A DNA stretch of 64,000 nt from a virus (IMGVR_UViG_3300006467_000563:68337-132336), one strand, 5' to 3'. Shown: positions 13,408-46,863, numbered from the stretch's first letter. Translations and numbers: made by a program. Notes: a model not told the origin generated them from the sequence alone.

Positions 13408-13823
13408 TGTACGCGTATGAATTAAGTGTTTATACAGAACTATTTGATTTTGATAATAGCCATGTATTAGGTAAGTTCTATTATTTAGGACCGGACGAAA
13501 TGCTGCATCCATTAGGTGATGCAATCAAAAAATATATGCAACCGCCTGTGTGCGGCATGTTAGTGTACACAGAAACCAGTAATGTAAAGCCATTTTTTAA
13601 TGAGCGTCCAGTAATGTCTGTTGGATTAGCACAATATGGCACTGCAGAATTAGAGCTTAATTTTGATGCAGAAGCAGGAAATGATTTATTTTTCGATAGA
13701 GAGACGTCATTATTAACATTAGACCGTCATCCTGCAAACGTGCAGGCAATTGGCAGAGTAATTGAAAAACTGGATGGCAATACATACAAAATCGAAATCA
13801 ATATGGATAAAATCTGGAGATAA
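13407..13823 (+). CDS. Hypothetical protein
   Basis: TAATG-coupled ORF. Confidence 0.6.
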   Translation: MYAYELSVYTELFDFDNSHVLGKFYYLGPDEMLHPLGDAIKKYMQPPVCGMLVYTETSNVKPFFNERPVMSVGLAQYGTAELELNFDAEAGNDLFFDRETSLLTLDRHPANVQAIGRVIEKLDGNTYKIEINMDKIWR

Positions 13824-13824
13824 A

Positions 13825-19099: not shown

Positions 19100-19365
19100 T
19101 GTTTATTTTATATGCAATAACTACACTAATTACTCTAAGTCTATCACTAATGCTTGCTAGAGATGTAGATGAATGCTTTGGTAGAGACTACAGGACTGAA
19201 TTCTATGCTATCATTGGGATGTTATTTATTACAGGCCCATTCGCCTATGGATTGTTATTAGCCACAGCTTTACTATTTATCCCCGGATATTTGATATACT
19301 GTATTGGCGTAGTTTTTTACAGACTTTGTACAGGTTATTATAAAAAGAAAGAGGAAAATTCGTGA
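19099..19365 (+). CDS. Small membrane protein
   Basis: Two to three hydrophobic stretches, basic C-terminus. Confidence 0.6.
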   Translation: MFILYAITTLITLSLSLMLARDVDECFGRDYRTEFYAIIGMLFITGPFAYGLLLATALLFIPGYLIYCIGVVFYRLCTGYYKKKEENS

Positions 19366-21005
19366 AAACGAGAGTATTATTTGTAAATGAATTTTCGACA
19401 CATAGCTCTGGTTATGCAAAATACGGTATGGAAGTCTTAAAGCGTCTATCTGTAAAAAATGACCTAGAAGTAGCTGAGCTTGCATGCTACGGTTCTGAAT
19501 TCAAAAAAGAAGATGTGTTGGAAGCACAGAAATTGCCTTGGACAGTATACTTCAACGTTCCAAATATGAATAACCCGGAACATGTGAAACAATACAAGTC
19601 TGCTAAAGAATTTGAGTATGGATTATTCAAGTTTAATGATGCTTTGTTACACTTTAAGCCCCATATCGTTATGGACATTCGTGACTTCTGGATGCAGTCT
19701 TATCAAGAGCGGTCGCCATTTCGTGACATGTTCAACTGGGTTATTATGACCACAGTTGATGCTAAGCCTCAACACGAGCAATGGATTTACACATTCTGTA
19801 ATGCAGATGGTGTTTTTACATATACAGATTGGGGAATGGATGTTCTGAGGGAGCAGGCTGGAGATAATATCAATCTTTTAGGTTCTGCAAGTCCAGCAGC
19901 AGAAGCATGTTATAAACATGTAAATAAGAATGTGGCAAAAGAAAAAGTTGGTATCAGCACAGACACAAAAATTATCGGTACTGTAATGCGTAATCAGGGA
20001 CGTAAGCTATTTCCAGATTTGTTTCAAGCATTCAGAAAATACCTTGATGATACTGGACGTACAGATACATATCTCTACTGCCATACAGCTTATCCTGATG
20101 TAGCTTGGGACATCCCAGAACTACTAAAACGTTACGAGATTGCGAGTCGAACACTTTTCACATACAAATGTGTTAACTGTAAGCATACTTATCCATCATT
20201 CTATCAAGGAATCGGGACCGCCTGTCCTAAGTGTCACCAGCTATCTGCCCGTATGCCACGTGTTGAGGACGGTGTAACAGATGAACAACTTGCAGGTATT
20301 ATGCAGACATTTGATTTGTATGTACAGCATGTAACTAATGAAGGATTCGGTATGCCTGTAGTAGAAGCAGGACAGTGTGGCGTCCCAGTTGTAGCTGTTG
20401 GTTATTCCAGTTTGGAGGATGTAACGCCTAAAGTTGGCGGGGTCACTATCCCACCGCTTGCTTTACAAACAGAACCGCAAACAGGTAGATTAAGAGCTGT
20501 GCCTGACAATGATGGTTTGGTAGAATACATGAAGGATTTCTTTTCTCTGCCATTACCAAACAGAATGATTAAGTCTAGAGATGCTGTTTTACAAACAAGA
20601 GAGAACTATAGTTGGGACGATACAGCAAACAAGTGGTATGACTACTTTAAAACTGTCGATGTTTCACAATATGAACAAAAGTGGCAATCGCCTCTACGTG
20701 TCAAGAAACCTGCTCCATATACTGAGCAACAAGACATGATGACAAACATGCAGTTTTGCGAATGGTTGATTAAATACGTTTTATGTGACGAACGTCAAAT
20801 GCATAGTTATCTACATATGCGATTACTACGTGACATTAACAACGGTTTCACATTAACTTACGGTAACAATCCATCATACTTTTCTGAAGATAGTGTTGCT
20901 GATGGACGTCCGAATGTGACTGATTTCTCTCGCAAAAAGGCTTACCAAGAAATATTAAACATATGTACGGAGTTTAACCTATGGGAACAAAAAAGATGCA
21001 AATAA
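19362..21005 (+). CDS. GT-B (GT4-like) glycosyltransferase with zinc-ribbon insertion
   Basis: EGFGMPVVEAGQCGVPVV (E-x7-E); GTVMRNQGRK; insert CVNC-x17-CPKC. Confidence 0.85.
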   Translation: MKTRVLFVNEFSTHSSGYAKYGMEVLKRLSVKNDLEVAELACYGSEFKKEDVLEAQKLPWTVYFNVPNMNNPEHVKQYKSAKEFEYGLFKFNDALLHFKPHIVMDIRDFWMQSYQERSPFRDMFNWVIMTTVDAKPQHEQWIYTFCNADGVFTYTDWGMDVLREQAGDNINLLGSASPAAEACYKHVNKNVAKEKVGISTDTKIIGTVMRNQGRKLFPDLFQAFRKYLDDTGRTDTYLYCHTAYPDVAWDIPELLKRYEIASRTLFTYKCVNCKHTYPSFYQGIGTACPKCHQLSARMPRVEDGVTDEQLAGIMQTFDLYVQHVTNEGFGMPVVEAGQCGVPVVAVGYSSLEDVTPKVGGVTIPPLALQTEPQTGRLRAVPDNDGLVEYMKDFFSLPLPNRMIKSRDAVLQTRENYSWDDTANKWYDYFKTVDVSQYEQKWQSPLRVKKPAPYTEQQDMMTNMQFCEWLIKYVLCDERQMHSYLHMRLLRDINNGFTLTYGNNPSYFSEDSVADGRPNVTDFSRKKAYQEILNICTEFNLWEQKRCK

Positions 21006-21304
21006 TTAATGTGGCAGACGCGATGTCAGACTGGTGTTACACATACATTGATGAATATGATGTGTTCTTCACATATTATATTAATGATTGTTATGAAGGG
21101 TATGGACAGGCTATCGGTATTAATAAGGATGGTACATGTCATGTGTATAATCTTGGTCATTGTTCGTGTTATGGACCGTTAGAGGGGTCTCCTGATGTAA
21201 CCACTTTGGACGCGTTGTTAAATTCAGAACATGTATTGTCTGTAGAAATTGAGTACCCAGAACTAAAAGATGCTATTGTAGAATGGCGGAAAAAGAATGG
21301 ATAA
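20996..21304 (+). CDS. Hypothetical protein with HCSC motif
   Basis: YEGYG...KDG...LGHCSCYGP. Confidence 0.6.
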   Translation: MQIINVADAMSDWCYTYIDEYDVFFTYYINDCYEGYGQAIGINKDGTCHVYNLGHCSCYGPLEGSPDVTTLDALLNSEHVLSVEIEYPELKDAIVEWRKKNG

Positions 21305-22448
21305 AATGAAAGTATTATTTATTGGGCATTATCGAGAGCAGTCTGGGTGGGGAAGAGCAGCATGTGAGTACATTCTAGCTTTAGACGAAGTTGGAGTCGA
21401 TGTTGTATGCCGTGCTGTCAAGCTGAATGATATCCAAGCTGAAATTCCAGAACGTATTAAAGAGCTGGAAAATAAATCTACTGACGGTGCTGAAATCTGC
21501 ATTCAATGTCTACTTCCCCATCAGTTGCATTATAATGGAAATTTTAAACGCAATATCTGTATCCCTTTTATTGATACTATCGAGCTAGACAGACATCCGT
21601 GGATTTCTCAGATGGAGAATTTTGAAATCTGGTCTCCGTGTGTGTCTCTTGATGCTGCAATAGAGGATATTAAGGAATATGAGGATGAAAGCTGTCGTGA
21701 GATTAATCGTGCAGCTATCGTCCCTGTCCCATGTGACCCTTCTAAATACTTATCTACACAAACCCCTTTGGATATCGGTGTTGATTTATCAGGAAAATTT
21801 ATTTTCTACAGTATTTTCGACTTGACTCCTAGAAAAAATATGCTAGGATTACTAAAGGCGTTCCATACTGCTTTCGAGCCGTGGGAAGATGTTGCTTTAA
21901 TTATCAAGACAGGTAAATTTGGTAAGCCTGCAGATGAAGTTCGTTCTGTTTGCATCGATATGAATAAAAAGATTTGTCAAAGTCTCAAATTGTACCCAGA
22001 AGGGGAATATAATAATCCAATTTTCATTACTGAGCAATTAACTGACGAACAGATAGAACAATTGCACGTACTTGGAGATTGTTTTGTATTGCCAACTTTT
22101 GGAGAGGCGTGGTGCTTCCCAGCATTTGATGCAATGGGATATGGTAATAAGCCTATTGTTACTAAAAATACTTCATGTGATGACTATATTACTGACACAA
22201 CAGGGACATTATGTAAATCAGTCCCACAGCCAGTAAGTGGCATGACAGACACATTTAGTGAGATTTTTAATGGTCATGAAATATGGCATGAGCCAAGTAT
22301 TATAGATTTCGCTAGAAGTATGAGAGGTATGTATGAAGATAGATATGTTCCAATTCCTAAGAACAATCCTCAAAATGGCTATGAACGGACAATGGACTTC
22401 TCGCGTACAGTAGTTGGAAATAAAATGAAAGAGTTACTGAATGTATAA
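21297..22448 (+). CDS. GT-B (GT4-like) glycosyltransferase
   Basis: SGWGRAA N-terminal loop, RKNMLGLL, DCFVLPTFGEAWCFPAFDAMGYG. Confidence 0.85.
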   Translation: MDKMKVLFIGHYREQSGWGRAACEYILALDEVGVDVVCRAVKLNDIQAEIPERIKELENKSTDGAEICIQCLLPHQLHYNGNFKRNICIPFIDTIELDRHPWISQMENFEIWSPCVSLDAAIEDIKEYEDESCREINRAAIVPVPCDPSKYLSTQTPLDIGVDLSGKFIFYSIFDLTPRKNMLGLLKAFHTAFEPWEDVALIIKTGKFGKPADEVRSVCIDMNKKICQSLKLYPEGEYNNPIFITEQLTDEQIEQLHVLGDCFVLPTFGEAWCFPAFDAMGYGNKPIVTKNTSCDDYITDTTGTLCKSVPQPVSGMTDTFSEIFNGHEIWHEPSIIDFARSMRGMYEDRYVPIPKNNPQNGYERTMDFSRTVVGNKMKELLNV

Positions 22449-23436
22449 TCAAGCTGCAACTATTACACATAGAGCAACCAACACAGGCAAATTGAATATC
22501 TTGTGTATGGATACACATGAGCGGTATCAATCCAATTTGGCAAAAACTGGTCACAACTTCTATTCTTTCCATGTTGAAAATCAAAAACAATGGAATACTG
22601 TCTATGGAGATGTCCCAGATAATTATCATAGGATACTAAATCCAAAAGGTAATTCTGTACATGGTGGAGTTTTCTTCGACCTTATCTTGTCGCAGAACAA
22701 GTTTGGTCAATTCCAAATTCTATCCCAGATTGCGAAACAGACTGGTGCCCCACTCGTAAGTATTGAACATACCTTACCTTATGAAACTTGGTCTACACAA
22801 AAACGTGCATATGCTATGGCTATGCGTGGTGATTACAATGTGTATCTGTCTGAGTTTAGCAAGAAAAAATGGGGAGGCCGGGGTGACATTATCCATAACG
22901 CTGTTGACACCGACCTTTTTTCTCCTGCTGATATTAAGAAAGAGCCATATGCTCTATCTATCGTGAACGAATGGAAGACTAGAGACTATTTCTGTGGCTA
23001 CAACTTATGGACTGAGATTGCAAAACAGGTTCCGACACATGTACGTGGCGACAATCCGGGTTGGACAACACCTGCTGGCAGTATGGAAGAGCTGGTTGAC
23101 GAATATCGTAAAGCAACCGTATTCCTAAATACGTCTTTATATTCGACATGTCCAACGACTGTACTTGAGGCTGCTTCGTGTGGAGTGCCAATTGTGACTA
23201 CGGCTACTACCATGCTTCCTGAAATCATTCAGAATGGATACAATGGTTTTATTAGTAACAATCCTGATGAGCTTGTCATGTACACACAAAGACTTCTAAA
23301 TAACCCTGACTTAGCATACGAATTAGGACAGAATGCTAGAAAGACTATGTTGGAAAAATTCAGTCTGGATAGCTTTGTTGAGAAGTGGAATGTTTTGTTT
23401 GAATCAACTAGGAGTTATGTACATAAGGGGAAATGA
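22441..23436 (+). CDS. GT-B (GT4-like) glycosyltransferase
   Basis: IHNAVDTDLF, FLNTSLYSTCPTTVLEAASCGVPIVTT, NGYNGF, LGQNARK. Confidence 0.88.
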   Translation: MYNQAATITHRATNTGKLNILCMDTHERYQSNLAKTGHNFYSFHVENQKQWNTVYGDVPDNYHRILNPKGNSVHGGVFFDLILSQNKFGQFQILSQIAKQTGAPLVSIEHTLPYETWSTQKRAYAMAMRGDYNVYLSEFSKKKWGGRGDIIHNAVDTDLFSPADIKKEPYALSIVNEWKTRDYFCGYNLWTEIAKQVPTHVRGDNPGWTTPAGSMEELVDEYRKATVFLNTSLYSTCPTTVLEAASCGVPIVTTATTMLPEIIQNGYNGFISNNPDELVMYTQRLLNNPDLAYELGQNARKTMLEKFSLDSFVEKWNVLFESTRSYVHKGK

Positions 23437-23948
23437 TGGAAGTAATAATGCCGCCTGTAAAATATAGGCTTTATAAAAAAAGTAGAAACACATATGTTGA
23501 CTTGAACAACCCCCATCATAAATATTTTCTTAATCTACAAACAGAAGAAGTAAGTAGATACTACAACTACTATGCTGATAAGTGGGATGAGGTTAGTATA
23601 GATGATTATGAATTGGAAAAGTGGACTGGCCTAAAAGACAGAAATGGAACATACATTTTCGAGAACGATATTGTATTATATTATCCTTATGGAAATAAAT
23701 ATAAGCCGCAACAAGATGTATTCTGGAATAACTTGCCCGTACTTCGACTGTTAAAAAAAGAACGAGAAGAGAATGAGTTAACAGAACATTACGTTGTGAA
23801 TTTTTACTGTGGCAGTTACCGTTTGAATGCTACTTCAGGATGTTATGGTGGCATTTTATTACACACTATGTTTGAAAAGCATGAATGTGAAGTTGTTGGC
23901 AACATTCATGAAAATCCAGAATTATTAGGAGGAATGTATGGGCGTTGA
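23433..23948 (+). CDS. YopX family protein
   Basis: WTGLKDRNGTYIFENDIV ... EVVGNIHENPELL. Confidence 0.85.
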   Translation: MMEVIMPPVKYRLYKKSRNTYVDLNNPHHKYFLNLQTEEVSRYYNYYADKWDEVSIDDYELEKWTGLKDRNGTYIFENDIVLYYPYGNKYKPQQDVFWNNLPVLRLLKKEREENELTEHYVVNFYCGSYRLNATSGCYGGILLHTMFEKHECEVVGNIHENPELLGGMYGR

Positions 23949-24363
23949 TTTTGTAACTTATGTCGCTTTCGGATATCCAATTACAGATTTGGTTGAAGAG
24001 CAAGAACTTGTGCATCAGCGTACAAAATATGATGAAGATACTGGTAAGCCATATACAGTTATCGAGGAAGAGGTACAATATCACATTAGAGGGACTGATA
24101 AATACTTTGATGAACTATATGAAACAGAAGAGTTCTTTGAAGATAAAGGTTTACAAGTATGTAAGGCATATGATTATGGTGGGGACCTAGATGATGATGA
24201 TATTATCGTAGGAAATTATGAATCTATCGACGATGATAGCTACACTGCCGAAACATTCTTAGATGAGTTAGAGTCTGTAGAATTGGATATGGCTAATATC
24301 ATTGATGAGAGTGTACTCGAAAATCTTGTGCCAGCCATGTATATTTTTAAGAGGATGTGCTAA
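23938..24363 (+). CDS. Acidic hypothetical protein
   Basis: GGAGG SD; about a quarter of residues are D/E. Confidence 0.7.
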   Translation: MGVDFVTYVAFGYPITDLVEEQELVHQRTKYDEDTGKPYTVIEEEVQYHIRGTDKYFDELYETEEFFEDKGLQVCKAYDYGGDLDDDDIIVGNYESIDDDSYTAETFLDELESVELDMANIIDESVLENLVPAMYIFKRMC

Positions 24364-24536
24364 TGGAATTTGGCGGGCCAGTACATATAATCTTCTGTAT
24401 ATCCTTTTTAGTACTAGCAGTTTATTTTATGATTAAACTTATCAATACACTGTCGGATATGTTTGCAATGTTTTTTGTGTTCATGTTTAAAGATGATATT
24501 GATGCAGATTTTTTTAAGAAAGACAAAGATGCATAA
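24363..24536 (+). CDS. 57-aa membrane micro-protein (not in the ORF track)
   Basis: MEFGGPVHIIFCISFLVLAVYFMIKLINTLSDMFAMFFVFMFKDD...; TAATG-coupled upstream and overlapping the NADAR start. Confidence 0.6.
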   Translation: MEFGGPVHIIFCISFLVLAVYFMIKLINTLSDMFAMFFVFMFKDDIDADFFKKDKDA

Positions 24537-25005
24537 CATTTACACTTTTTTCTGGCGTGGTGAGTTTAGCAACTGGTATCCATGTGAGTTCCAAGTTGAA
24601 GATAAGACTTACAATTGTGTCGAGCAATACATGATGTCTCAAAAAGCTCTCCTTTTTAACGACAAAGAATCCTATGACCGAATCATGTCAACTAATGACC
24701 CCCGCGAGCAGAAGAAAATTGGTAGACATGTAAAAGGTTTCAAAGATGAGATTTGGTGGTTTGAATCTTTCAAGGTTGTCGAGGAAGGTGTATTCAGTAA
24801 GTTTCTTTGTAATGGTGAACTAGCTCAGAAGCTGATATCTACTAAAGGAACTATTTTAGTGGAAGCATCACCGTATGACCGTATCTGGGGAATCGGTTAT
24901 TCAGAACAGGAAGCAATGGAAAACTGTAATGACTGGGGAGAGAATCGCTTAGGTAAAATATTAACATATGTAAGAGAGAAATATTTTATGGGAAAAGAAA
25001 AATGA
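24529..25005 (+). CDS. NADAR/YbiA family hydrolase
   Basis: FSNWY, EQYMMSQKA, KKIGRHV, LVEASPYDRIWGIG, GENRLGKIL. Confidence 0.92.
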   Translation: MHNIYTFFWRGEFSNWYPCEFQVEDKTYNCVEQYMMSQKALLFNDKESYDRIMSTNDPREQKKIGRHVKGFKDEIWWFESFKVVEEGVFSKFLCNGELAQKLISTKGTILVEASPYDRIWGIGYSEQEAMENCNDWGENRLGKILTYVREKYFMGKEK

Positions 25006-25184
25006 AACCAAAAACGAAACACAAGCGTATCCAACGTGCAAAAGAAAGATATGAAGACTGGGACCCTAGAGGCAATTTATGTCCTATATGTGGTAAAGAC
25101 TTCAGACATGGAAACTGTTCCCATGATGTCAAACAAGCCCGCGATGTTTTATTTGAAAGATATATAAAAGAGGTTGCCGGATGA
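25002..25184 (+). CDS. Small Cys/His zinc-finger-like protein
   Basis: CPICGKDFRHGNCSH; ATGA-coupled. Confidence 0.55.
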   Translation: MKPKTKHKRIQRAKERYEDWDPRGNLCPICGKDFRHGNCSHDVKQARDVLFERYIKEVAG

Positions 25185-25453
25185 AATATGAACGCAAAGA
25201 GTCGGGCTTGATTGTCCCTCACGTTACTCCTGAAGAAGCAAGAGAAAAAATGCCTCATTTTACCACTCGATTTTTTGAGTGTTATTACGAATCTGACGTT
25301 GACTGCTTCAAAAAACTTGTCCTGAAGAACAACGGCTTTTTTGAGCAGTCAGTTCTCGTTCCATTGCTGAATCACAAAAATCAACCTGTGAGTAAGAAGT
25401 ACATTTGTATTTATCAATATTATGAGAAGATTAGTATGGAGGTATTGTGTTAG
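25181..25453 (+). CDS. Hypothetical protein
   Basis: GAGG SD; ATGA overlap. Confidence 0.55.
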   Translation: MKYERKESGLIVPHVTPEEAREKMPHFTTRFFECYYESDVDCFKKLVLKNNGFFEQSVLVPLLNHKNQPVSKKYICIYQYYEKISMEVLC

Positions 25454-26022
25454 ATTTTCCACGTAGAGATTGGAAATTTCGTGCATGGGTTATCCCAGAA
25501 AAAAGAATGATGGATTGGAAAGAATTCTTGATGGGAAATGACAGGTGGAATATGTTTGTTGGATTTGGAAACGAGTGTTATCCTTGCAATCAGCCAAAAT
25601 ACCATTTTCATGTTATGCAGTGGACTGGAATACAAGATAGCGATGGGAATGATATCTATGAAGGCGACATAATTGAGTATTTTGCTTACTGTTACGCAGA
25701 TGGCCCCGGCTGCGAATTCACTTGGGAAAGAGAAATTGGATACACAGTTAAAGAGTGGTGTATAGACGAATATGCACCAAAAAGAGATATTGTATATTGG
25801 GACACAAATTGGCAATCATATGCACCAATTATTATCACAAGTTATGATGGATGGGCCTCGTTCGATTTTATCTTAAGAGAGGCTAAAGAAGAAATACCAT
25901 TAAACTCAAAAGGTAAACCAAATTATCCACCACCATATATCAGGGTGATTGGAAATATTTTTGAAAATCCAGAATTAGTTGAGAAATGTAATGAACAACC
26001 GTTTCAGAGTTTGGAGTCCTAG
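25447..26022 (+). CDS. YopX family protein (second paralogue)
   Basis: KFRAW, MQWTGIQDSDGNDIYEGDII, VIGNIFENPELV. Confidence 0.88.
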   Translation: MLDFPRRDWKFRAWVIPEKRMMDWKEFLMGNDRWNMFVGFGNECYPCNQPKYHFHVMQWTGIQDSDGNDIYEGDIIEYFAYCYADGPGCEFTWEREIGYTVKEWCIDEYAPKRDIVYWDTNWQSYAPIIITSYDGWASFDFILREAKEEIPLNSKGKPNYPPPYIRVIGNIFENPELVEKCNEQPFQSLES

Positions 26023-26034
26023 TGGAGTATCCAG

Positions 26035-26322
26035 ATGAGTAGGTATCTCATACGTGTAACATTCCCGTATAGTTTTACTGACACAGAAGACTGGAATCAT
26101 TTTAAGATAAACAGGAAATTCACAAAAGAACATTCTTTACAAAAAGAAGTCAATACAAAAAAAGAAGCATTGTCTATCATCAAATATTTTCGCGGTTTTG
26201 CGTTTGTTGATGTATATGATTATAAGACCCCGGTAAATATTGATGACTTTGATGCAAATGTTATGTATTGTGGATATCTTGGTTTTGGCAAATGGTACGA
26301 TGAGGTACATAATGGACGATAA
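26035..26322 (+). CDS. Hypothetical protein
   Basis: GGAG SD; coupled ORF. Confidence 0.55.
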   Translation: MSRYLIRVTFPYSFTDTEDWNHFKINRKFTKEHSLQKEVNTKKEALSIIKYFRGFAFVDVYDYKTPVNIDDFDANVMYCGYLGFGKWYDEVHNGR

Positions 26323-26587
26323 AGACATTTACCCATATATAGATTTCGGCAGTGATAAAGTCCTATATTTAATACTAGGCCCCGGACACGGATATGTCAT
26401 ATCTGGCATAGGTGGAGCCAAATTATCAGAAGAAGACTTTAAATCAATTGATGATATTATAATCTCACCAAGTCTCAAAGGTAGATGCTTCGACTGTGAC
26501 AGTATTTTAGGACATGGTATTTGTCCAGACTGCCATAATGATAGAATGATAGAATCTCAATGTGAGTATTGCAAACATGCTAATTAG
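26312..26587 (+). CDS. Hypothetical protein with Cys-rich C-terminus
   Basis: GAGG SD before ATG 26312; CFDC, CPDC, CEYC. Confidence 0.55.
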   Translation: MDDKDIYPYIDFGSDKVLYLILGPGHGYVISGIGGAKLSEEDFKSIDDIIISPSLKGRCFDCDSILGHGICPDCHNDRMIESQCEYCKHAN

Positions 26588-26595
26588 GAGAAATA

Positions 26596-27066
26596 ATGAT
26601 TATTGCCGGAACTGGGCATAGACCCAAATTTTGCCCATGTAAATACAAAGAGAATCATCCGTGGCTACTTGACTTGAAAGACCGTCTTGCTTTGTCCATG
26701 CTTGCTAATAAGGTAACACACGTAATTAGCGGAATGGCTATAGGATGGGACACGTGGCTGGCTCAAGTAGCCTTAGAACTTGAAGTTCCAGTATGGGCAT
26801 ATGTCCCATTCAAAGGGCAAGGTGGTAACTGGCCAAGCTCTTCTCGTAAGGAATATGAACGTATTTTAGCAAACAGTGAGATTGTCACATTCTTAGCCGA
26901 CGAATACGATAAAGATGTATTTCTAGCTCGTGACCGTGCTATGGTATTGGACTGCGATGAAGTTTTTTCACTTCTGAATCCAGAAGCTAAAAGTGGTGGG
27001 ACTTACTATACGGTTCAATACGCCAAAAAACAAGATAGACCGATTACAAATTTTTGGAGAGATTAG
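26596..27066 (+). CDS. SLOG superfamily (YspA/DUF1273-like) protein
   Basis: AGTGHRP, ISGMAIGWD, YVPFKGQ, RDRAMV, SGGTYYTVQYA. Confidence 0.85.
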   Translation: MIIAGTGHRPKFCPCKYKENHPWLLDLKDRLALSMLANKVTHVISGMAIGWDTWLAQVALELEVPVWAYVPFKGQGGNWPSSSRKEYERILANSEIVTFLADEYDKDVFLARDRAMVLDCDEVFSLLNPEAKSGGTYYTVQYAKKQDRPITNFWRD

Positions 27067-27263
27067 TGGAAGACGATTTAAACCATATTATGCTGTATGA
27101 CAAAGATAATAAGCCATCCCTCATGGTATGTCTAACAGATAAAGGGATAGCAGCAAAAAAAGAGGGACTGGAACTAACAGATGAAAATGGCGAATGGAAC
27201 TACGAATACGTCGCTGGATTTATTGATTATAAAGTAATTACAGACTGTTTTTTAGGAGACTGA
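27066..27263 (+). CDS. Hypothetical protein
   Basis: GTG overlapping the upstream stop; GGAGA SD. Confidence 0.5.
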   Translation: MEDDLNHIMLYDKDNKPSLMVCLTDKGIAAKKEGLELTDENGEWNYEYVAGFIDYKVITDCFLGD

Positions 27264-27264
27264 A

Positions 27265-27525
27265 ATGACTGTTGAAGAACTATTGATTAAATGTCAAACA
27301 TTGGTTGACGCTGGTATGGGTAAATGCAAAGTTGTCAAATCAAGTGACGACGAAGGCAACAGCTTTCATTATATCAACGGGATTGGTAAAGACTACTTAC
27401 ATCCTTGGCAAAACAGCTACGGAGTTGAGCTTATTTGCGAAGAAACGATGGAAGATTGGATTCAAGAATGCAAAGATGACGGAACAACTCCTCCTGATTT
27501 TAAAGAGGTAGCATGCATTTGGTAA
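27265..27525 (+). CDS. Hypothetical protein
   Basis: AGGAG SD; SSDDEGNSF motif common in small phage proteins. Confidence 0.65.
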   Translation: MTVEELLIKCQTLVDAGMGKCKVVKSSDDEGNSFHYINGIGKDYLHPWQNSYGVELICEETMEDWIQECKDDGTTPPDFKEVACIW

Positions 27526-27580
27526 TTTTTGTCAAAAACTAACAAATAGTATTGAAATTGTTAGGATGAATAAGTCAAAA

Positions 27581-27604
27581 TGAGCTATAATAATATAGCT
27601 TCAT
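27581..27604 (+). promoter_or_regulatory. -10 box (TATAAT) embedded in the palindrome AGCTATA-ataa-TATAGCT
   Basis: Intergenic, ahead of the second glycosyltransferase block; no clear -35. Confidence 0.4.
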
Positions 27605-27627
27605 AATCTATTTATACAAGGAAAGTA

Positions 27628-28434
27628 ATGATAAACCACGACCTATTACCAAAAATTGAAGATAATCCAGACGCAAAACCAAGCACGTCATGTAAAAAAT
27701 GTGTGTTCAGTATCCAAGATAGCAATACGCAAATTGGATGTAGATACGATAATCGTATTAGTAAGTTCATGGACAAAGAAGATGTTGATGTGTATTCATT
27801 GACAGAAGATGGTCAAACATTCTGTGTTCTGACGACTATGTGTACAGCTTGTACGCAAAAGGTCCCAGATGGGGAAGATGATGTAAATTTTGTACGTGGG
27901 CATCTCCAAAAACAGTTAAATCTGATTATTGAAATGACATCAGAAACATCTGAGAAAGAGTTGGTTCATACATACGAAACCGCCATTAATCAACAAATAC
28001 CACCAGAGAGAATTGTTATTTCATATTGCAATCGCAACAGTATGAATCCACAAGATGTGTTCATGGCATTGTCTCAATCATCACTTGAAAGAAAAGGAAT
28101 TCGTTTTGTTATTGTACAAAGTATTAATGGGACTTCTTTTGACGAGCATATGCTCGCATGTGTTAATAAGTGTACCAGCCCCTATTTTACGACATTCATT
28201 GCAGGAGAGACAATTCCATACAATCTTGGAGAGACAGTAGACCAATTGGTAAACTACCAACTTGCTCAATTTATCGCAATTAAAGCTCCAAAGTCTTCTG
28301 GTAATGTATGTTTAACTAAGCTGTTCAAAAAAGCAATGAGAGTTAATCGAGTAGAAGACGGTAAATATGACTATTACAAAGCATTAAATATGCTGACAGG
28401 ATATAAGGATGGGGTATTACAGTGGAACGTATGA
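27628..28434 (+). CDS. Cys-rich N-terminus plus degenerate GT-A-like domain
   Basis: CKKC...C...C..CTAC; TYETAINQQIPPERIVIS resembles the GT2 N-terminus but there is no DxD. Confidence 0.5.
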   Translation: MINHDLLPKIEDNPDAKPSTSCKKCVFSIQDSNTQIGCRYDNRISKFMDKEDVDVYSLTEDGQTFCVLTTMCTACTQKVPDGEDDVNFVRGHLQKQLNLIIEMTSETSEKELVHTYETAINQQIPPERIVISYCNRNSMNPQDVFMALSQSSLERKGIRFVIVQSINGTSFDEHMLACVNKCTSPYFTTFIAGETIPYNLGETVDQLVNYQLAQFIAIKAPKSSGNVCLTKLFKKAMRVNRVEDGKYDYYKALNMLTGYKDGVLQWNV

Positions 28435-29177
28435 AATCGGTCGGAGTGATTATTCCTTGTCATAATTATGGCAACTATATTGGTGGAGCATTAAAAAGTG
28501 TACTTGACCAAGATTATATTGGTGATATTCATACAATCGTTGTAAATGATGGCTCAAAGGATAACACATTTGAAGTTGTTGATTTGTATAAGCCGTGTTT
28601 TGAAGATAACAGAACACTTGATTACTATGAGCTGCCAAATCCAACTGGACCAAGTAATGCACGTAATGTCGCGTTGAATGCTTTATTCCAACAATATGAT
28701 GTGGACTTAATAGCATTTTTGGATGCAGATGATAAAATGACTAATGACAAGTTAAGCAGACTTGTCCCTGTTTTTGATGATGGTGCAATCGGGTCAGTCT
28801 ACGCGGACTATTATCATGTTTATTCGGATGGAACGTATGCTATTGAATTGAAAGAGATTTTTGACAGAGAAAGGTTTATTGTCGAAAATATCGGGCCAAA
28901 TAATACAAGTTTAGTAACTAAAGAGGCTTTACTAGCAATTCAGGATTCATATGGATTCTTCGACCCATCTTTGAGAACATGCGAAGACTATGACCTGTTC
29001 TTACGAATTTCAGAAAAGTACCCTATCAAGCATGTAGCTGAGCCTCTGACTTATATTCGTGTACATGATAACAATTCTACAAATACAGTCAATAAGAAAA
29101 TCTGGCAAGCAAATCGCATGCGTGTAAATCAAAAGATAAAGGAGAGAATGGATGAGCGACTTAATCAACATCAATGA
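28422..29177 (+). CDS. GT2 glycosyltransferase
   Basis: VIIPCHNYG, VVNDGSKD, GPSNARN, FLDADD, CEDYDL, YIRVHDNN. Confidence 0.92.
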   Translation: MERMKSVGVIIPCHNYGNYIGGALKSVLDQDYIGDIHTIVVNDGSKDNTFEVVDLYKPCFEDNRTLDYYELPNPTGPSNARNVALNALFQQYDVDLIAFLDADDKMTNDKLSRLVPVFDDGAIGSVYADYYHVYSDGTYAIELKEIFDRERFIVENIGPNNTSLVTKEALLAIQDSYGFFDPSLRTCEDYDLFLRISEKYPIKHVAEPLTYIRVHDNNSTNTVNKKIWQANRMRVNQKIKERMDERLNQHQ

Positions 29178-29808
29178 TGTCTTTCCTAACAAGCTGTGTA
29201 TTAGCTTAGAATCCAGACAAGATAGAAGAGATGCTACAACTGCAGAACTTGGGAAATATGGAATCGATTTTGAATTCTACGATGCTAAACCTCCAATTTC
29301 TGACAGAGTCAGAGAAATTTATAACACCAGACTCCTACCCGGAGAAACTGGTGCCTTTGAATCACATTACGATGCTTTAAATAAAGCAGAAATGTTGGAA
29401 TGGGAGTCTGTTTTAATTCTAGAAGATGACGTAGAGTTAACCCCAAATTTCGATGTAAAATTTGATGAAGCCATTCGCAAAGTCCCTGACAACTGGGACA
29501 TGATTTATTTTGGTGGCAACCATGAATCAGAACCGCAAGTTCTGGGAAATGGTTTGCTGAAATGCACAGAAACATACGCGATTCATATGGTTGCAATACG
29601 AAACACTGTATATGAAATGCTCAAAATCACCTGTCAAATGAATCAATATGCCTTTCCGGTGGACTTTCTGTACGCCACGATTCATTGCCATAGGAACGTG
29701 TATGCTTTTTCTCCTGCATTAGCTTTCCAGCGTATCGACTATTCAGATATCCAAGGAGAGGTAGTAGATTATACTATTTTAAGAAAGGGGCACAATGCCG
29801 AGAAGTGA
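29152..29808 (+). CDS. GT25 glycosyltransferase
   Basis: ISLESRQDRR, GETGAFESH, LILEDDV, IYFGG, PVDFLY. Confidence 0.88.
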   Translation: MSDLININDVFPNKLCISLESRQDRRDATTAELGKYGIDFEFYDAKPPISDRVREIYNTRLLPGETGAFESHYDALNKAEMLEWESVLILEDDVELTPNFDVKFDEAIRKVPDNWDMIYFGGNHESEPQVLGNGLLKCTETYAIHMVAIRNTVYEMLKITCQMNQYAFPVDFLYATIHCHRNVYAFSPALAFQRIDYSDIQGEVVDYTILRKGHNAEK

Positions 29809-30508
29809 CAATGGTTGCAGACCAGCAAGAAAAAAAGAGGTGCCCTCAGATATCACAGTAGTTTTACTAGCAGGTAATCCCGGATGGCGTATGAAGTCTT
29901 ATGGGCCACAATGTTTACAGAAGTTATCTACGGGGCAAACTCTATTAGACAAACAGGTAAGCAGTATTCGTGCTGTTTTACCTGAATCTGAAATTATCAT
30001 CACATGCAAAGATTATCTCACAAAGATACTGAACAATAAGCCATATGACGTTCGTGTCGTACAGTCACAGATTGAAGACTCGAATGAGGTTGAAGAAATA
30101 CGGCTCGCGTTGAATAATACAATAACTGACAATGTATTATTTGTATGCAGTGACATGTACTTTGACCGTAATATATTTAATAGTGTTGATTTCAATGAAT
30201 CTTTTGTTCTATATGAAACTAACAATATGATGGCCAGCGACTCTGTTGGTGTAACTATTGTCAACGGTAAGGCCAGTATCATGTCTTATGGCATCGATAA
30301 TAAGTGGGCAAGAATCTTTTACGTAAATCAACGTGGAAAAGTATCACTAAATCATTATTGTAAGAACGAACAGAATCAAAAAATGTTTGCTTGGGAAGCT
30401 GTAAACTACGTTGTAGATAAATCATCAGTATTTGCCTATAGAACTGACTCTAATTTATACTGTGTTGAAAACACAAATGACATAAGAAAATTGAAGGGAA
30501 TGAAATAA
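29795..30508 (+). CDS. Sugar-phosphate nucleotidyltransferase-like protein (LicC/GlmU-N fold), degenerate
   Basis: VVLLAGNPGWRMKSYGPQCL aligns with LAAGxGxRxxxxxPKxL; VCSDMYF. Confidence 0.7.
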   Translation: MPRSDNGCRPARKKEVPSDITVVLLAGNPGWRMKSYGPQCLQKLSTGQTLLDKQVSSIRAVLPESEIIITCKDYLTKILNNKPYDVRVVQSQIEDSNEVEEIRLALNNTITDNVLFVCSDMYFDRNIFNSVDFNESFVLYETNNMMASDSVGVTIVNGKASIMSYGIDNKWARIFYVNQRGKVSLNHYCKNEQNQKMFAWEAVNYVVDKSSVFAYRTDSNLYCVENTNDIRKLKGMK

Positions 30509-31347
30509 TGCCGGGGATTGTAGTAGCACTAGAGCCGGATATCGAGGTTACTCGCCATCATGTGAGTATGGTATTACCGTTTACACTGGTCGGATTTACC
30601 GCACATAAGTGGGACACTAAAATGGTGTCTGCATATGATATGATGGATGCCGTAGATGCTAAATTGGTTGTCTGCAGCCATGAAGAGTATCATAAGAATC
30701 TTGGTTTACAGCAATACATCGCAAAAAATGGCCTGCCTTGTCTAATGAGATATGAAGCAGAAGGTGATGCTTTCGGTGGTGCTGGTGGTAATTGTATTAC
30801 TTATACACGCTATCCAAATACAGAATTCAAAGAAATATTACCTTCATGTGCCGATATTTTCAACTACAAGCCAGTTGGCGAGTTGGATAAGACCCCATCA
30901 TATGAAATCTCAATTAAAAACTACGTCAATCCAAGATTTTTTAGAACAAAAATTGGAGAAAATGAAAAGTTAAATGGTTTCAAAATGTTTAGAGGCTATA
31001 ATGTTAGAAACGAATATAATTTTGGTGATATGCCAGATGCTGACTTATGTCCGTTAATTCATCAAGCTAGATATGGTGTGTCACTGTATGTAGATGGGGA
31101 AAGCTGTATCACCTCTGACGTTTTCAATATTCTTCACTGCGGGGTTCCATGTCAGTGTTTGAGCGATACAGAAGAACATATGAGAAAGTTAATTGAGGAC
31201 ACTTTCGGACAAGATACTACCCAATTATTGATGAAATGTGACCTGCCTAAAAAATACACAAACTTCGACCGTGCCATCACAATCAGTAAACTCTTTAACT
31301 TAGGCGTAGAAAAGGACTTACGGAATGAATCGGTCAAGTATAAGTGA
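30508..31347 (+). CDS. Hypothetical protein, possible degenerate GT-B fold
   Basis: LPSCADIFNYKP, SDVFNILHCGVPC resemble GT-B/CgeB-like segments. Confidence 0.45.
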   Translation: MPGIVVALEPDIEVTRHHVSMVLPFTLVGFTAHKWDTKMVSAYDMMDAVDAKLVVCSHEEYHKNLGLQQYIAKNGLPCLMRYEAEGDAFGGAGGNCITYTRYPNTEFKEILPSCADIFNYKPVGELDKTPSYEISIKNYVNPRFFRTKIGENEKLNGFKMFRGYNVRNEYNFGDMPDADLCPLIHQARYGVSLYVDGESCITSDVFNILHCGVPCQCLSDTEEHMRKLIEDTFGQDTTQLLMKCDLPKKYTNFDRAITISKLFNLGVEKDLRNESVKYK

Positions 31348-32242
31348 TTATGATAAGTTCAAAAATGCTGTATATGAAGCAGCTACTAATGGATGTAAAT
31401 TTAGGAATTTTCTAAAACATCCAGCTATTCTGGAAATTTTCGGACATTATAAATACGAAAATGCTCTAAAAATCTGGGACGAGATGAGAGAGGAAATTTT
31501 AACTTCCCCTTATTTTCCAGACAATCAAGATAACGGTACATTTTTTAGCAGAAAAGAGCAAGAGGAATGTGGAATCCATACTCCCAGTCAGGCTAAATAT
31601 TTTCTTCTGCCAGAATACGATAAACTGGATTCTTTTGCTACTGATGATAGATACTTCGAATTCCAATCATTTTTACTAGAATTTATTCGTGTCGCCCATG
31701 ATATGAAGAAAAGTCTCGATATCGAGAACTTGTTCAATTATCAGATTGTGGAGCTTGGTGTCGGTTTTCTAGGACAATATCTTACTTTAAATGGCGATTA
31801 TCAGCAATATTACCTGATTGATTTACCAGAAGTATTGCTACTTGCAGAGAAGATTATTAAGAAAAAATGTCTCTGGGAGAACGACGCCACAATTGGCAGC
31901 TATATGTACAATTGGAGAAGTACCTCTAGCATCTCCACATTTGACCTAGAACGCTATCCTTTTAAAAGTCGAGGTTTAGACCATAATGGTATTTTTTTAA
32001 GCTCACACGCGTTCTCAGAGCTTACTACAGAGCATCAAGACGTTGTTTACGACAAAGTAATCCGTCATTGCAGATATGGATACCTTTTGATGAATCAAAT
32101 TAGTCACTTACATGGGGTTAATTCTTACTCTATGAGTGAAAACATTGAGAAATTAGAAGGTCTTGGAAAAACAGTCAAAGTGCATGAGGAATGGCCTTTG
32201 ACATTCAAAGGAAACCACGTAATTACTTGGATGGCAGAATGA
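31325..32242 (+). CDS. Putative sugar O-methyltransferase (SAM-dependent)
   Basis: IVELGVGFLG motif I, YYLIDLPEVL, FLSSHAFSEL...YDKVIRHCRYGYL. Confidence 0.75.
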   Translation: MNRSSISDYDKFKNAVYEAATNGCKFRNFLKHPAILEIFGHYKYENALKIWDEMREEILTSPYFPDNQDNGTFFSRKEQEECGIHTPSQAKYFLLPEYDKLDSFATDDRYFEFQSFLLEFIRVAHDMKKSLDIENLFNYQIVELGVGFLGQYLTLNGDYQQYYLIDLPEVLLLAEKIIKKKCLWENDATIGSYMYNWRSTSSISTFDLERYPFKSRGLDHNGIFLSSHAFSELTTEHQDVVYDKVIRHCRYGYLLMNQISHLHGVNSYSMSENIEKLEGLGKTVKVHEEWPLTFKGNHVITWMAE

Positions 32243-32451
32243 AAAGAAGACACACACCTCTGAAACAAGAAAACAAGGCAGTACCGGCCCTAATGGACAT
32301 GAGAATGGATTTTTTAATGGGTGGGTTGGAATGGGATGAGGAAGAAGGAAAAGTGTTACGGGCACTGATGATTCAGATTGATAATCTGCATCCAGAGCTT
32401 AAGGAATATGTATTAGACTCATTTAAGGAAAAAGAAGATGGACAGACGTAA
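32239..32451 (+). CDS. Hypothetical protein
   Basis: ATGA-coupled to the methyltransferase. Confidence 0.55.
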   Translation: MKRRHTPLKQENKAVPALMDMRMDFLMGGLEWDEEEGKVLRALMIQIDNLHPELKEYVLDSFKEKEDGQT

Positions 32452-32614
32452 TTTTTTTAAAATTTTAGGACTTGGTACTGCAATCGCTGCTGGTAAGAAA
32501 CTGGAAGGTAAAATACCAGAAGAGATTGTAGAACCAACAAAAGATGTATTAGACAAACGTGTGAAGCCACAAACTTTTACAGCAAGTGGCTCACCGATTA
32601 GTTTTTCAGGATAG
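32438..32614 (+). CDS. 58-aa protein with twin-arginine (Tat) signal-like N-terminus (not in the ORF track)
   Basis: MDRRNFFKILGLGTAIAAG...; AAGGA SD; fills the gap exactly. Confidence 0.7.
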   Translation: MDRRNFFKILGLGTAIAAGKKLEGKIPEEIVEPTKDVLDKRVKPQTFTASGSPISFSG

Positions 32615-32622
32615 GAGATAAA

Positions 32623-33243
32623 ATGAAAGATAGAGATATCGCACTAGGTTATGCAGAAGTAAAAAATGATGAGCTGTTGAAAAACAGGTATAAAGACGGT
32701 TACAAACGGATGGCAGAAGTAGTCAAAGATAATATCGGTGCTGTAATCGCATTGAATGGCCGCTTTGGCATAAACTCTATGTTGAAGCAGTACTTGAAGT
32801 GTTACCATTACGACGCTGTTGTTCTAAATGGCACACACCAAAAATATTTCTTCAATGTGTGTAAAGAAGACTTAGAGGTAGATGGTTTTTATACATATCG
32901 GCCTGATATTGCAGCTTATGATACTGTATTGGTTGATTCATCTGACATTAGTGAAGAAGAATATGTTAGTCTGATTAATCAAGTTAATGATGAACAAAAC
33001 CTGATTACAATTTACGATGGTGTCCTAGCATTCTCACCACCAGATGGTAATGGGAACCATATTCCTGTATTCGAGCTTGACTTATTCCTAATTCGTGGTC
33101 AACGTGAAAACGATTTTATCATGGATGAATTCAGTCCTGAAACTGAAGAGCTGCTTGAGAAAGGACTGGAAGACGCTAAGAATGGGAATCTTACTGAAGG
33201 ACCAGACCTTGAGTCTGATTTAGGTGATGGGGATGAAGAGTGA
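32623..33243 (+). CDS. Hypothetical protein
   Basis: AGGAG SD; 206 aa. Confidence 0.65.
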   Translation: MKDRDIALGYAEVKNDELLKNRYKDGYKRMAEVVKDNIGAVIALNGRFGINSMLKQYLKCYHYDAVVLNGTHQKYFFNVCKEDLEVDGFYTYRPDIAAYDTVLVDSSDISEEEYVSLINQVNDEQNLITIYDGVLAFSPPDGNGNHIPVFELDLFLIRGQRENDFIMDEFSPETEELLEKGLEDAKNGNLTEGPDLESDLGDGDEE

Positions 33244-33880
33244 TTACAAAACAGTAGTTATTATATCCGGGCTTCCCGGCTCAGGCAAATCAACAATTAA
33301 GCGTGATTTGGTTGAGTCGATGCTCACCCATAGATACAGCGTACAAGTAATTTCACATGACAATTACTTTATGGAAAATGGTGAGTATAAATTCACAGAA
33401 GAAAAATACTCTGCTGCCAGACCTGAATGTAAAACAGATTTCGATGAAGCTGTAGATAAAGGTATCAACTGTATCATAATTGACAACCCTAATATGGATT
33501 GGGAAGATACAAGATACTACATTAAAAATGGACTAGTTTCTGGATATAATATCCGCTTCAGAGAAAGTGAAACTGAATGGCGGTGGGATGTAGAAGAATG
33601 TGCTAAAAGAAACGTACATGGTGTTCCAGCAGACTGTATCCAATCTAAAAAAGACAGATATATGCCGCGTGTTGTTTTAATTAAGCGTGCGATGTATTTC
33701 TGTGAAAAAAAGGATATTGAGGCAATACCTGTAAAAATTGAAGAAAATAATTACGGAATCTATCTCCCACAAAATAAACCATCCCATTTATGTGTGGATG
33801 ATGAATACAGTGGAGAGAATTTAATTAATTACCTTAATGCTTTGAAAATTGGTATAATTGATTGGGAGGCAATAGAGTGA
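33224..33880 (+). CDS. N4BP2/AAA_33-like P-loop (polynucleotide) kinase
   Basis: SGLPGSGKST, SHDNYF, IIDNPN, CAKRNVHGVP. Confidence 0.8.
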   Translation: MMGMKSDYKTVVIISGLPGSGKSTIKRDLVESMLTHRYSVQVISHDNYFMENGEYKFTEEKYSAARPECKTDFDEAVDKGINCIIIDNPNMDWEDTRYYIKNGLVSGYNIRFRESETEWRWDVEECAKRNVHGVPADCIQSKKDRYMPRVVLIKRAMYFCEKKDIEAIPVKIEENNYGIYLPQNKPSHLCVDDEYSGENLINYLNALKIGIIDWEAIE

Positions 33881-34365
33881 GAGTTGGAGTTTTACTACCA
33901 AGATATAATGACTGTCAATTAGCATATGAGTGTGTGCGTAGTATTAATGCACATATTTATGATAGTGTTGAGGACGATTATATTCTCTTCTACGAAAACA
34001 TCTCAAACTTCCCAGTAGTACCTTTATGTGCTGCAATGACGCCTGACGAGATGTGTATGTTTAATGATGGTATTTTAATCAGCACAAACATGAATAATCT
34101 TGAATCCACAATTAAAACAGTCAATACCTCACAAAAGGTTTTATATTTGGCTGACATTGAGTGGATTAGACCAAATTACAACAGAAACTATAAGCAAAAT
34201 CTAGAATGTCTTGATGGTGTAAAACTAATTGCTAGAAGCGATAGACATGCTCAGATACTTAGAAATTATTGCGACAGGGATGTTTCTGTTATGAGAAATT
34301 TCAATATCCCTGAAATAGTACGACAGGTGAAAAATGTCCAAGAAGAAATATCAGAAACCAATTAG
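33877..34365 (+). CDS. Hypothetical protein resembling an isolated GT-B N-terminal lobe
   Basis: VLYLADIEW...LIARSDRHAQIL...VMRNF; GGGAGG SD, GTG start. Confidence 0.5.
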   Translation: MRVGVLLPRYNDCQLAYECVRSINAHIYDSVEDDYILFYENISNFPVVPLCAAMTPDEMCMFNDGILISTNMNNLESTIKTVNTSQKVLYLADIEWIRPNYNRNYKQNLECLDGVKLIARSDRHAQILRNYCDRDVSVMRNFNIPEIVRQVKNVQEEISETN

Positions 34366-46847: not shown

Positions 46848-46863
46848 GTTCGTTCCTTAAATC

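Follow-up and report, generated by a model that had tools for sequence, protein, structure and literature searches.

A lineage-conserved glycosylation module beside the split DnaE gene of an uncultured phage, with sequence evidence against DNA as its acceptor

The window analyzed here is a 64,000-nucleotide stretch of viral DNA (IMGVR_UViG_3300006467_000563:68337-132336), corresponding to bases 68337-132336 of a whole IMG/VR virus record of 177,764 bp that is rated 89% complete (G000). A preliminary description of this window had outlined a large multi-enzyme glycosylation region at 19362-34365. Judged from sequence and synteny, this region is the phage's copy of an ancestral glycosylation module, which is core to a lineage of large uncultured phages from marine and sediment sources and is split here by insertions. 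DNA appears to be an unlikely acceptor, and the favored reading, which is tentatively given just short of an even chance, is that one of the phage's own conserved proteins, probably a virion protein, is glycosylated in the cytoplasm.

Lineage counts in the following refer to 80 IMG/VR loci fetched from related uncultured phages, whose contigs reach 174 kb. In the window, the glycan genes form two groups, cluster A (19362-23436) and cluster B (27628-32242), with about 4 kb of filler in between; in the wider lineage, the two clusters are contiguous just downstream of the split DnaE gene, and the filler block is missing. Four close relatives (contigs of 42-175 kb) carry both clusters in the same order, with varying intervening filler. 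The order in the wider relatives is split DnaE, exonuclease, (SSB), (sigma factor) and three GT-B glycosyltransferases (GTs) of about 552, 379 and 337 aa, followed by a 154-aa methyltransferase-like protein, a protein family designated c5, a GT2, a nucleotidyltransferase, a CgeB-like GT-B and an epimerase. The variable end contains FkbM methyltransferases, GT8, GT25-like and GT2 enzymes and, once, a GT29 with a DHDPS-family enzyme. The module adjoins the polymerase in 77 of the 80 loci, interleaved with the exonuclease, SSB and sigma factor genes. The GT-B trio is found in all 80 loci with 37-46% identity to the window, comparable to DnaE and the exonuclease (36-47%), while the families beyond approximately +5 kb downstream are each present in at most 22 loci. 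As the trio is as conserved as DnaE and the downstream families are patchy, the module would comprise a conserved core with variable tailoring.

The glycan region had been placed directly 3′ of the polymerase genes, which agrees with the end of the C-terminal part of DnaE at 19099. Its treatment as one glycosylation region was correct in that the genes are present, but 23433-27525 and 32623-34365 show no link to glycans. The region contains at least 7 GT-like genes, and 4 more are located in an island upstream of the window, giving about 11 in the genome; the genome total further includes two or three O-methyltransferases, one radical SAM enzyme and three sugar-nucleotide enzymes.

The three enzymes of cluster A had been described as GT4 members, and this assignment is supported by Pfam for two of them and by PHROG 2170 and a lineage hidden Markov model (HMM) for the third (Table 1). 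The Pfam gathering cut-offs are 26.4 bits for Glycos_transf_1, 23.3 bits for Glycos_transf_2 and 24 bits for Glyco_transf_25, and the cut-off for TIGR04371 is 44 bits. The 547-aa GT, the only trio member modeled, adopts a GT-B fold of two Rossmann domains in its AlphaFold2 (AF2) model (pLDDT 89.5), and E327 and E335 of its E-x7-E motif are invariant in 33 sequences. Its best Foldseek/PDB neighbor is 3oy2, the chlorovirus NY-2A protein B736L (E 2e-16; sequence identity 17%), followed by MshA, PimB′, BshA and sucrose-phosphate synthase, with target-normalized TM scores of 0.71-0.79 to MshA, PimB′, BshA and 3oy2. GlgM and the methylmannose-polysaccharide mannosyltransferase 7qsg are also among the structural matches. 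T4 alpha-GT and beta-GT are outside the top 50 structural matches of this model. Ordinary GT4 enzymes consist of about 360-400 aa and do not have the extra length of the 547-aa GT. Its C-terminal Rossmann domain contains an inserted CxxC...CxxC ribbon (approximately residues 270-292), and the protein ends in a conserved helical domain of about 115 aa (approximately residues 430-547) that AF2 predicts well; these additional elements may participate in acceptor recognition. The 331-aa GT is the best-conserved gene product of the module; its homologues form at least 489 clusters (45-52% identity), it occurs at 179 IMG/VR loci, and a tblastn search revealed no homologue of it in any cultured phage.

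In cluster B, the GT2, GT25 and nucleotidyltransferase of the preliminary description were all recovered, either above the Pfam cut-offs (GT2, 81 bits; GT25, 47 bits) or by a match to NTP_transf_3. Of three further GT-like folds that had been listed, two were found, namely the GT-A-like domain at 27628-28434 and the small GT-B at 30508-31347, and a third was not. The former belongs to the c5 family, which is present in 71 of the 80 loci and whose lineage HMM also weakly matches GT2; the protein has no Pfam match and no conserved DxD in its GT-A-like domain, and it may be catalytic or an adaptor. The Pfam match of GT25 spans profile positions 3-117 of 199. By tblastn, GT25 is found in 6 of the 80 loci (22 for the GT25-like family); its matches in the PDB, to mimivirus R655 and GT25 proteins, are weak, and its homologues in the huge phages LR756504 and LR756508 share no synteny. 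The nucleotidyltransferase has tblastn matches in 71 loci, and its gene family is present in 65. The 279-aa GT-B occupies the position held in the wider lineage by the CgeB-like (Glyco_trans_1_2) GT; it has only 9 matches among 1.84 billion representatives, and its AF2 model is poor (pLDDT 55). An Atlas lead that linked this protein to T4 beta-glucosyltransferase was not supported, given that it has no PDB sequence match and so few relatives, that T4-Gluco-transf is absent from the genome and that the CgeB-like HMM matches instead. The gene described as sugar O-methyltransferase-like does resemble TIGR04371, but its score of 25.9 bits is below the cut-off. The 305-aa product has no Pfam or PDB match, so that the assignment is one of resemblance, and it is retained in two close relatives (L002 and L005) at 72-74%.

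Additional glycan genes are found elsewhere in the genome. The upstream island encodes a GT2, a CAP59-like GT, a 458-aa GT2, a radical SAM enzyme, a TylF methyltransferase and a GT4. Its first gene, which encodes 135 aa (G000 32977-33384, 35 kb before the window start), is the genome's only homologue (E 1e-19) of the 154-aa methyltransferase-like family that follows the trio in 71 of the 80 loci, indicating that the island is a displaced piece of the same ancestral module. The glycine-rich SAM motif of the 135-aa protein looks degenerate. A GDP-mannose 4,6-dehydratase (GMD) of 491 aa is encoded at the head of the late block (G000 146633-148108, minus strand), and a PseB/CapD-like dehydratase is encoded at G000 13516-14379. 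The GMD homologues are scattered among Proteobacteria and Flavobacteriales at about 50% identity and do not inform on the host. The GMD has an N-terminal extension of about 100 aa, its Pfam match is in three stretches, and its gene lies beside those of an HNH endonuclease and an ERCC4 nuclease. The earlier statement that the window has no sugar-nucleotide synthesis genes is incorrect, since the nucleotidyltransferase is one; the GMD and the PseB-like dehydratase are outside the window. Its statements on membranes were borne out: no segment in the GT-like and glycan gene products is at the transmembrane hydropathy threshold, and neither a flippase nor any polytopic membrane protein is encoded in the genome, none of whose proteins contains as many as four hydrophobic segments at the threshold used. 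The genome also encodes no Bac_transf initiating transferase and no integrase. Therefore, the phage alone would be unable to start, flip or polymerize a surface polymer.

In characterized phage DNA glycosylation, the hydroxyl handle is provided by a ThyA homologue (5hmC, 5hmU, 5hoC) or by a C5-methylase together with TET/JBP (PMC13326640; 10.1101/2023.12.21.572611). Six-frame profile searches of the 89%-complete genome detected no ThyA-like, Tet_JBP, C5-methylase or TGT gene, with the TET search run without a positive control, and Pfam T4-Gluco-transf, the T4 beta-GT family, had no match at E up to 10 in the six frames. The genome encodes a canonical ThyX with the RHR...S..RY motif, which is about half identical to the flavin-dependent thymidylate synthase 6j61. 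Among ten related IMG/VR records (G001-G010), ThyX is present in 8, ThyA in 1 (a complete record without ThyX), TET in 0 and C5-methylase in 1; the eight relatives that are at least 90% complete have one synthase each (ThyX in 7 and ThyA in 1). Thus, the window has no thymidylate-synthase-like gene, as had been described, and the proposed check of the rest of the genome for base-hydroxylating enzymes revealed none, only the ordinary ThyX.

Restriction sites are strongly depleted throughout the genome (Table 1). At least 14 restriction specificities, which involve all four bases, are wholly or almost wholly removed, and nine 6-bp palindromes are at zero. When the comparison was limited to 6-mers expected at least 10 times, 11 of 49 palindromic 6-mers were at or below 20% of expectation, versus 2 of 3738 non-palindromic ones; the latter two, GAGCCC and GGGCTC, are both at zero and fit GRGCYC. 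GATC and GCGC are also at zero in three close relatives (L002, L003 and L005), whereas the purged sites differ among the trio-bearing wider relatives: many have purged GATC, others GCGC and one TCGA, and many show no purge. Depletion in a 50-kb sample of T4 is much weaker. As purging selection acts only on cleavable DNA, a blanket bulky modification of the bases would make the purge unnecessary; this argument counts against blanket modification, not against sequence-specific or partial modification. The restriction-site purge, coupled with the absence of a base-priming enzyme here and in near-complete relatives, makes DNA an unlikely acceptor. The isoelectric point was dropped as an indicator of DNA binding, because the GT families here are all acidic and T4 alpha-GT is acidic as well (pI 6.1).

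Regarding the pathway, the nucleotidyltransferase would activate a sugar phosphate, and the SDR dehydratases (GMD and PseB-like) would supply activated sugars. An inner oligosaccharide would be built in the cytoplasm by soluble enzymes, namely the three retaining-type GT-B/GT4 enzymes, the Zn-ribbon/GT-A-like c5 protein, the GT2 and the CgeB-like GT-B. Outer sugars and methyl caps would be added by lineage-variable enzymes, which are here the GT25, the O-methyltransferase-like protein and the products of the upstream island. The acceptor would be a conserved phage protein, most probably of the virion, as in chloroviruses and mycobacteriophages. From the gene identities, synteny, conservation, missing export and base-priming genes and site purge, we infer both the division into core and cap and this acceptor. 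GC content varies between 28 and 57% among the related loci, and the restriction sites that were lost differ as well, implying diverse hosts and one conserved acceptor, which would fit a phage-borne target better than a host envelope. The deoxysugar enzymes and O-methyltransferases elsewhere in the genome, as in PBCV-1, and the chlorovirus B736L structure as the best neighbor of the 547-aa GT are also consistent with glycosylation of a virion protein. This gene set (at least 7 and 4 GT-like genes, along with deoxysugar enzymes and two or three O-methyltransferases) agrees with the earlier proposal that soluble enzymes would make a multi-sugar glycan with methyl caps. As for the acceptors it had named, DNA is disfavored by the lack of a priming enzyme and by the site purge, and virion proteins are still the best candidate; the S/T-rich virion proteins it singled out have ordinary fiber-like compositions and no clear sequon. 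Its step from the lack of membrane anchors to a cytoplasmic acceptor is weak, since the lipopolysaccharide (LPS)-core and teichoic-acid GTs WaaG, TarM, TarS and TarP are soluble and act on lipid-linked host intermediates.

Several observations weigh against a virion acceptor. No acceptor was found, and the virion proteins have no S/T-rich tail. SG or [ST]G.[ST] motifs are 1.45-1.66 times over shuffles in the open reading frames (ORFs) of the virion module, versus 1.2-1.4 times elsewhere; the enrichment of Ser-Gly and [ST]-G-x-[ST] is thus modest and not specific to virion ORFs. The GT module is located in the replication module (DnaE, SSB and sigma factor), away from the structural genes, and neither GT cluster is preceded by the late-type GGTGTATAAT element, which is found before structural genes. 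The close association with the polymerase is reminiscent of T4, in which beta-gt is near genes 42 and 43. The fold matches of the model are those of a generic GT4, and no function is known for B736L itself, so that the likeness to it is only a resemblance. At G000 46327-47177, 21 kb before the window start, the GGTGTATAAT element also precedes the gene for a 255-aa Gly/Ser/Thr-rich protein; this site follows the upstream glycan island at a distance of about 2.6 kb and is succeeded by two genes resembling a lysis pair. The 255-aa protein may be a late or virion protein and is thereby a candidate for the acceptor.

Three other targets were considered. An oligosaccharide built on a DNA base for protection against nucleases, as in T4, RB69/DLP3, TET-associated clusters and YerA41, is very improbable here. 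The location directly after the polymerase genes in 77 of the 80 loci, with the exonuclease, SSB and sigma factor, is a T4-like layout, a dNMP-kinase-like gene lies upstream, three adjacent GT4 enzymes arabinosylate DNA in DLP3 (PMC13326640), and an acidic pI does not exclude DNA as a substrate, as T4 alpha-GT illustrates. Multi-sugar DNA modification would also be less unusual than had been assumed, since RB69, DLP3, TET-associated clusters and YerA41 provide known examples (PMC13326640; 10.1101/2023.12.21.572611; PMC9023294). However, no enzyme for a hydroxyl handle was detected here or in the relatives searched, each near-complete genome has one ordinary thymidylate synthase, and the purge of at least 14 specificities, with different ones among trio-bearing relatives, is expected only if the DNA is cleavable. 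The T4 alpha- and beta-GT structures are not in the top 50 matches, T4-Gluco-transf is missing from the genome, and the contigs assembled normally from several metagenomes.

Remodeling of a host envelope glycan is unlikely as well. In that case, the substrates would be lipid-linked intermediates of, for example, an LPS/lipooligosaccharide (LOS) core, teichoic acid or capsule, reached from the cytoplasmic face, with initiation and export by the host, and the enzymes might block superinfection or keep progeny off debris. The TuaG-like GT2, the GT25 (an LOS family) and the WaaG/RfaG-like and EpsE-like GT4 resemblances would suit this role, host enzymes of this type are soluble too, and an early or middle placement suits action on a living cell. 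Nevertheless, the phage encodes no integrase, initiating transferase, flippase or polytopic membrane protein, and the trio is universal and slowly evolving across phages of 28-57% GC, whose host acceptors would differ. To our knowledge, the surface-converting phage GTs are accessory genes of temperate phages. Another cytoplasmic product is decidedly unlikely; it could be a methylated oligo- or polysaccharide, either free or bound to lipid, a small molecule carrying sugars or a glycosylated non-virion protein of host or phage, possibly with a counter-defense function. For a methylated polysaccharide, the mycobacterial methylmannose polysaccharides serve as a comparison. The structural matches to small-molecule GT4 enzymes (MshA, BshA, sucrose-phosphate synthase and GlgM) and to 7qsg, and the anti-defense genes (NADAR, Tad2-like and SLOG) interleaved with or adjoining the module, point in this direction. 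However, seven to eleven GTs with variable caps far exceed the needs of known small-molecule pathways, the anti-defense genes are variable filler that is missing from the ancestral contiguous layout, and such a product has no phage precedent.

Other features in and around the module are compiled in Table 1. A UDG-like gene and an exonuclease gene lie between the two DnaE parts. The 88-aa protein between DnaE and the trio has no counterpart in the 80 related loci and is placed outside the conserved module. The 107-aa Cys-rich protein has no Pfam match and no match in the 80 wider-lineage loci, indicating that it is limited to close relatives. The proteins of 32623-34365 have no similarity to any lineage GT HMM, and none of the 80 loci contains a counterpart of the P-loop kinase or of the 206-aa protein. 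Anti-defense-type genes (Tad2-like, NADAR and YpsA-SLOG) are inserted into the GT module, and their content differs between relatives (L005 468-854; window 24463-25005); the filler spot behaves as an insertion hotspot for anti-defense genes. In a wider relative, a GT29 (sialyltransferase-family) gene is next to a DHDPS/NanA-family gene, a pair hinting at nonulosonic-acid caps in some members of the lineage. One wider relative contains a LAGLIDADG intein inside the C-terminal part of DnaE and, ahead of the exonuclease gene preceding this part, a further GT of 680 aa. These features of wider relatives are at L022 18551-21014 and L023 1378-4773. Megablast and tblastn searches against cultured phages and single-protein patterns in IMG/VR revealed no useful close relative.

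Table 1. Features of the glycosylation region and its surroundings (window coordinates) and restriction-site counts in the whole genome
Feature	Position	Strand	Evidence
DnaE, N part	13762-15465	+	
DnaE, C part	17429-19099	+	
88-aa small protein, three hydrophobic segments	19099-19365	+	hydropathy; end overlaps first GT start
GT-B/GT4, 547 aa, first of trio	19362-21005	+	Glycos_transf_1 34.9 bits, 1.4e-8; lineage HMM 1.7e-210
107-aa acidic Cys-rich protein, between first two GTs	20981-21304	+	41% identity in close relatives L002, L005
GT-B/GT4, 383 aa, second of trio	21297-22448	+	Glycos_transf_1 24.5 bits (just below cut-off); PHROG 2170 2.9e-15; lineage HMM 1.3e-119
GT-B/GT4, 331 aa, third of trio	22441-23436	+	Glycos_transf_1 61.6 bits, 9e-17
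Filler block, not glycan-related: two YopX, NADAR, YpsA-SLOG, small ORFs	23433-27525	+	Pfam
YopX genes	23433-23948 and 25447-26022	+	Pfam
NADAR	24463-25005	+	Pfam
YpsA-SLOG	26596-27066	+	Pfam
268-aa protein, N-terminal Cys-rich ribbon and GT-A-like domain (family c5)	27628-28434	+	Atlas TM 0.52-0.56, GT2-like; lineage HMM 1.1e-36
GT2 (GT-A), 251 aa	28422-29177	+	Glycos_transf_2 81.2 bits, 1.1e-22, residues 9-139; TuaG-like 1.3e-16; lineage HMM 2.3e-70
GT25, 218 aa, variable part of module	29152-29808	+	Glyco_transf_25 47.2 bits, 3.2e-12
Sugar-1-phosphate nucleotidyltransferase-like (MobA/GlmU-N type), 237 aa, basic	29795-30508	+	NTP_transf_3 1.1e-8; GlmU N-terminal matches; lineage HMM 5e-61
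Small divergent GT-B, 279 aa	30508-31347	+	Atlas TM 0.65-0.73 to GT4/CgeB-like clusters; CgeB-like lineage HMM 5.4e-6
Putative sugar O-methyltransferase, 305 aa	31325-32242	+	NCBIfam TIGR04371 (NanM-like) 6.5e-6, 25.9 bits, below 44-bit cut-off
Tail: 206-aa acidic protein, 218-aa P-loop kinase (KTI12/AAA_33-like), 167-aa protein	32623-34365	+	Pfam
GATC	whole genome		0 observed, about 616 expected
GCGC	whole genome		2 observed, 142 expected
CCAGG / CCTGG (CCWGG)	whole genome		0 observed, 81 expected each
AAGCTT	whole genome		0 observed, 44 expected
CAGCTG	whole genome		0 observed, 42 expected
CCCGGG	whole genome		0 observed, 20 expected
GAGCTC	whole genome		0 observed, 18 expected
GGTACC	whole genome		0 observed, 17 expected
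TCCGGA	whole genome		0 observed, 15 expected
AGGCCT	whole genome		0 observed, 12 expected
CTCGAG	whole genome		0 observed, 11 expected
GTCGAC	whole genome		0 observed, 10 expected

The enzyme families encoded here are ordinary, and self-glycosylation of phages or giant viruses is already known. What is new is how large the gene set is, that it is a universal core module, with a fixed place beside the replicative polymerase, in a large uncultured lineage, and that sequence-level evidence argues against a DNA target despite this position. It is conceivable, with somewhat less than even confidence, that the lineage coats its particles with a virus-made glycan, in which a conserved core made by the GT-B trio bears a hypervariable, methylated outer part, perhaps with nonulosonic-acid caps in some members, that resembles a phage 'serotype'; the enzymes would be expressed with the replisome, as in chloroviruses. 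If true, virion glycosylation would occur outside actinophages and on a giant-virus scale. If the virion is the acceptor, a large and environmentally common phage group would make its own particle glycan, with a bearing on adsorption, particle stability, grazing, immune recognition and the diversification of phage 'serotypes'. The analysis also provides a chemistry-free rule for sorting phage GT clusters, depending on whether a base-priming enzyme is encoded and whether restriction sites are purged. Both criteria point away from DNA here, despite a polymerase-side position, for which DNA is the default guess. The universal linkage of the module to DnaE is worth testing.

Among known systems, phage DNA glycosylation (T4, the poly-arabinosyl-5-hydroxycytosine of RB69/DLP3 and TET clusters) likewise employs GT4-like GT-B and GT-A enzymes akin to the GTs for LPS, teichoic acid and small molecules, with up to three consecutive GTs and a nucleotidyltransferase near replication or nucleotide-metabolism genes (PMC13326640; 10.1101/2023.12.21.572611). 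Those systems all depend on a ThyA homologue or a C5-methylase with TET for the hydroxyl handle, whereas neither was detected here or in the relatives searched, and their genomes are restriction-resistant, whereas this one is purged. Bacterial glycan clusters (LPS/LOS core, teichuronic or teichoic acid and exopolysaccharide), together with Gtr and TarP, share with the module GT4, GT2 and GT25 enzymes, a nucleotidyltransferase, SDR dehydratases, O-methyltransferases and peripheral anchor-less GTs. Unlike these clusters, the phage has no initiating phosphoglycosyl transferase, flippase, polymerase, ABC exporter or GT-C, and unlike the Gtr/TarP prophage converters, it is of a lytic type without an integrase and its GTs are core (80 of 80 loci) rather than accessory.

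Virion glycosylation provides the closer parallels, in that the GTs here are soluble and virus-encoded and are accompanied by no export or oligosaccharyl-transferase machinery. In mycobacteriophages (Che8, Corndog and Myrna), virion O-glycosylation reportedly decorates capsid and tail-tube proteins (Freeman et al. 2023, as cited in PMC12619734), and these phages are similar to the present one in having soluble phage GTs, O-methyltransferases in some and no export machinery. Those phages have a few GTs and acceptors with C-terminal glycan-bearing tails, in contrast to the 7-11 GTs, the absence of such tails and the replication-region module found here. The 'Moraphages' also have four core GTs and apparently represent a different, T4-like lineage (PMC12619734). 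PBCV-1, the closest functional parallel, is a eukaryotic giant virus with Vp54 as the acceptor, whereas here the GTs form one operon-like module next to DnaE. In PBCV-1, the genes for soluble capsid GTs are early and the enzymes act in the cytoplasm (PMC5408694), and GMD and a methyltransferase domain are virus-encoded (PMC5408694, PMC7826918). The present phage resembles PBCV-1 (A064R, A111/114R, A075L, A546L/B736L, GMD and GMER) in its several anchor-less soluble GTs, its own GMD and its putative methyltransferase cap, and PBCV-1 likewise combines early genes scattered outside the structural block with a conserved glycan core and variable outer sugars (PMC5408694, PMC7826918).

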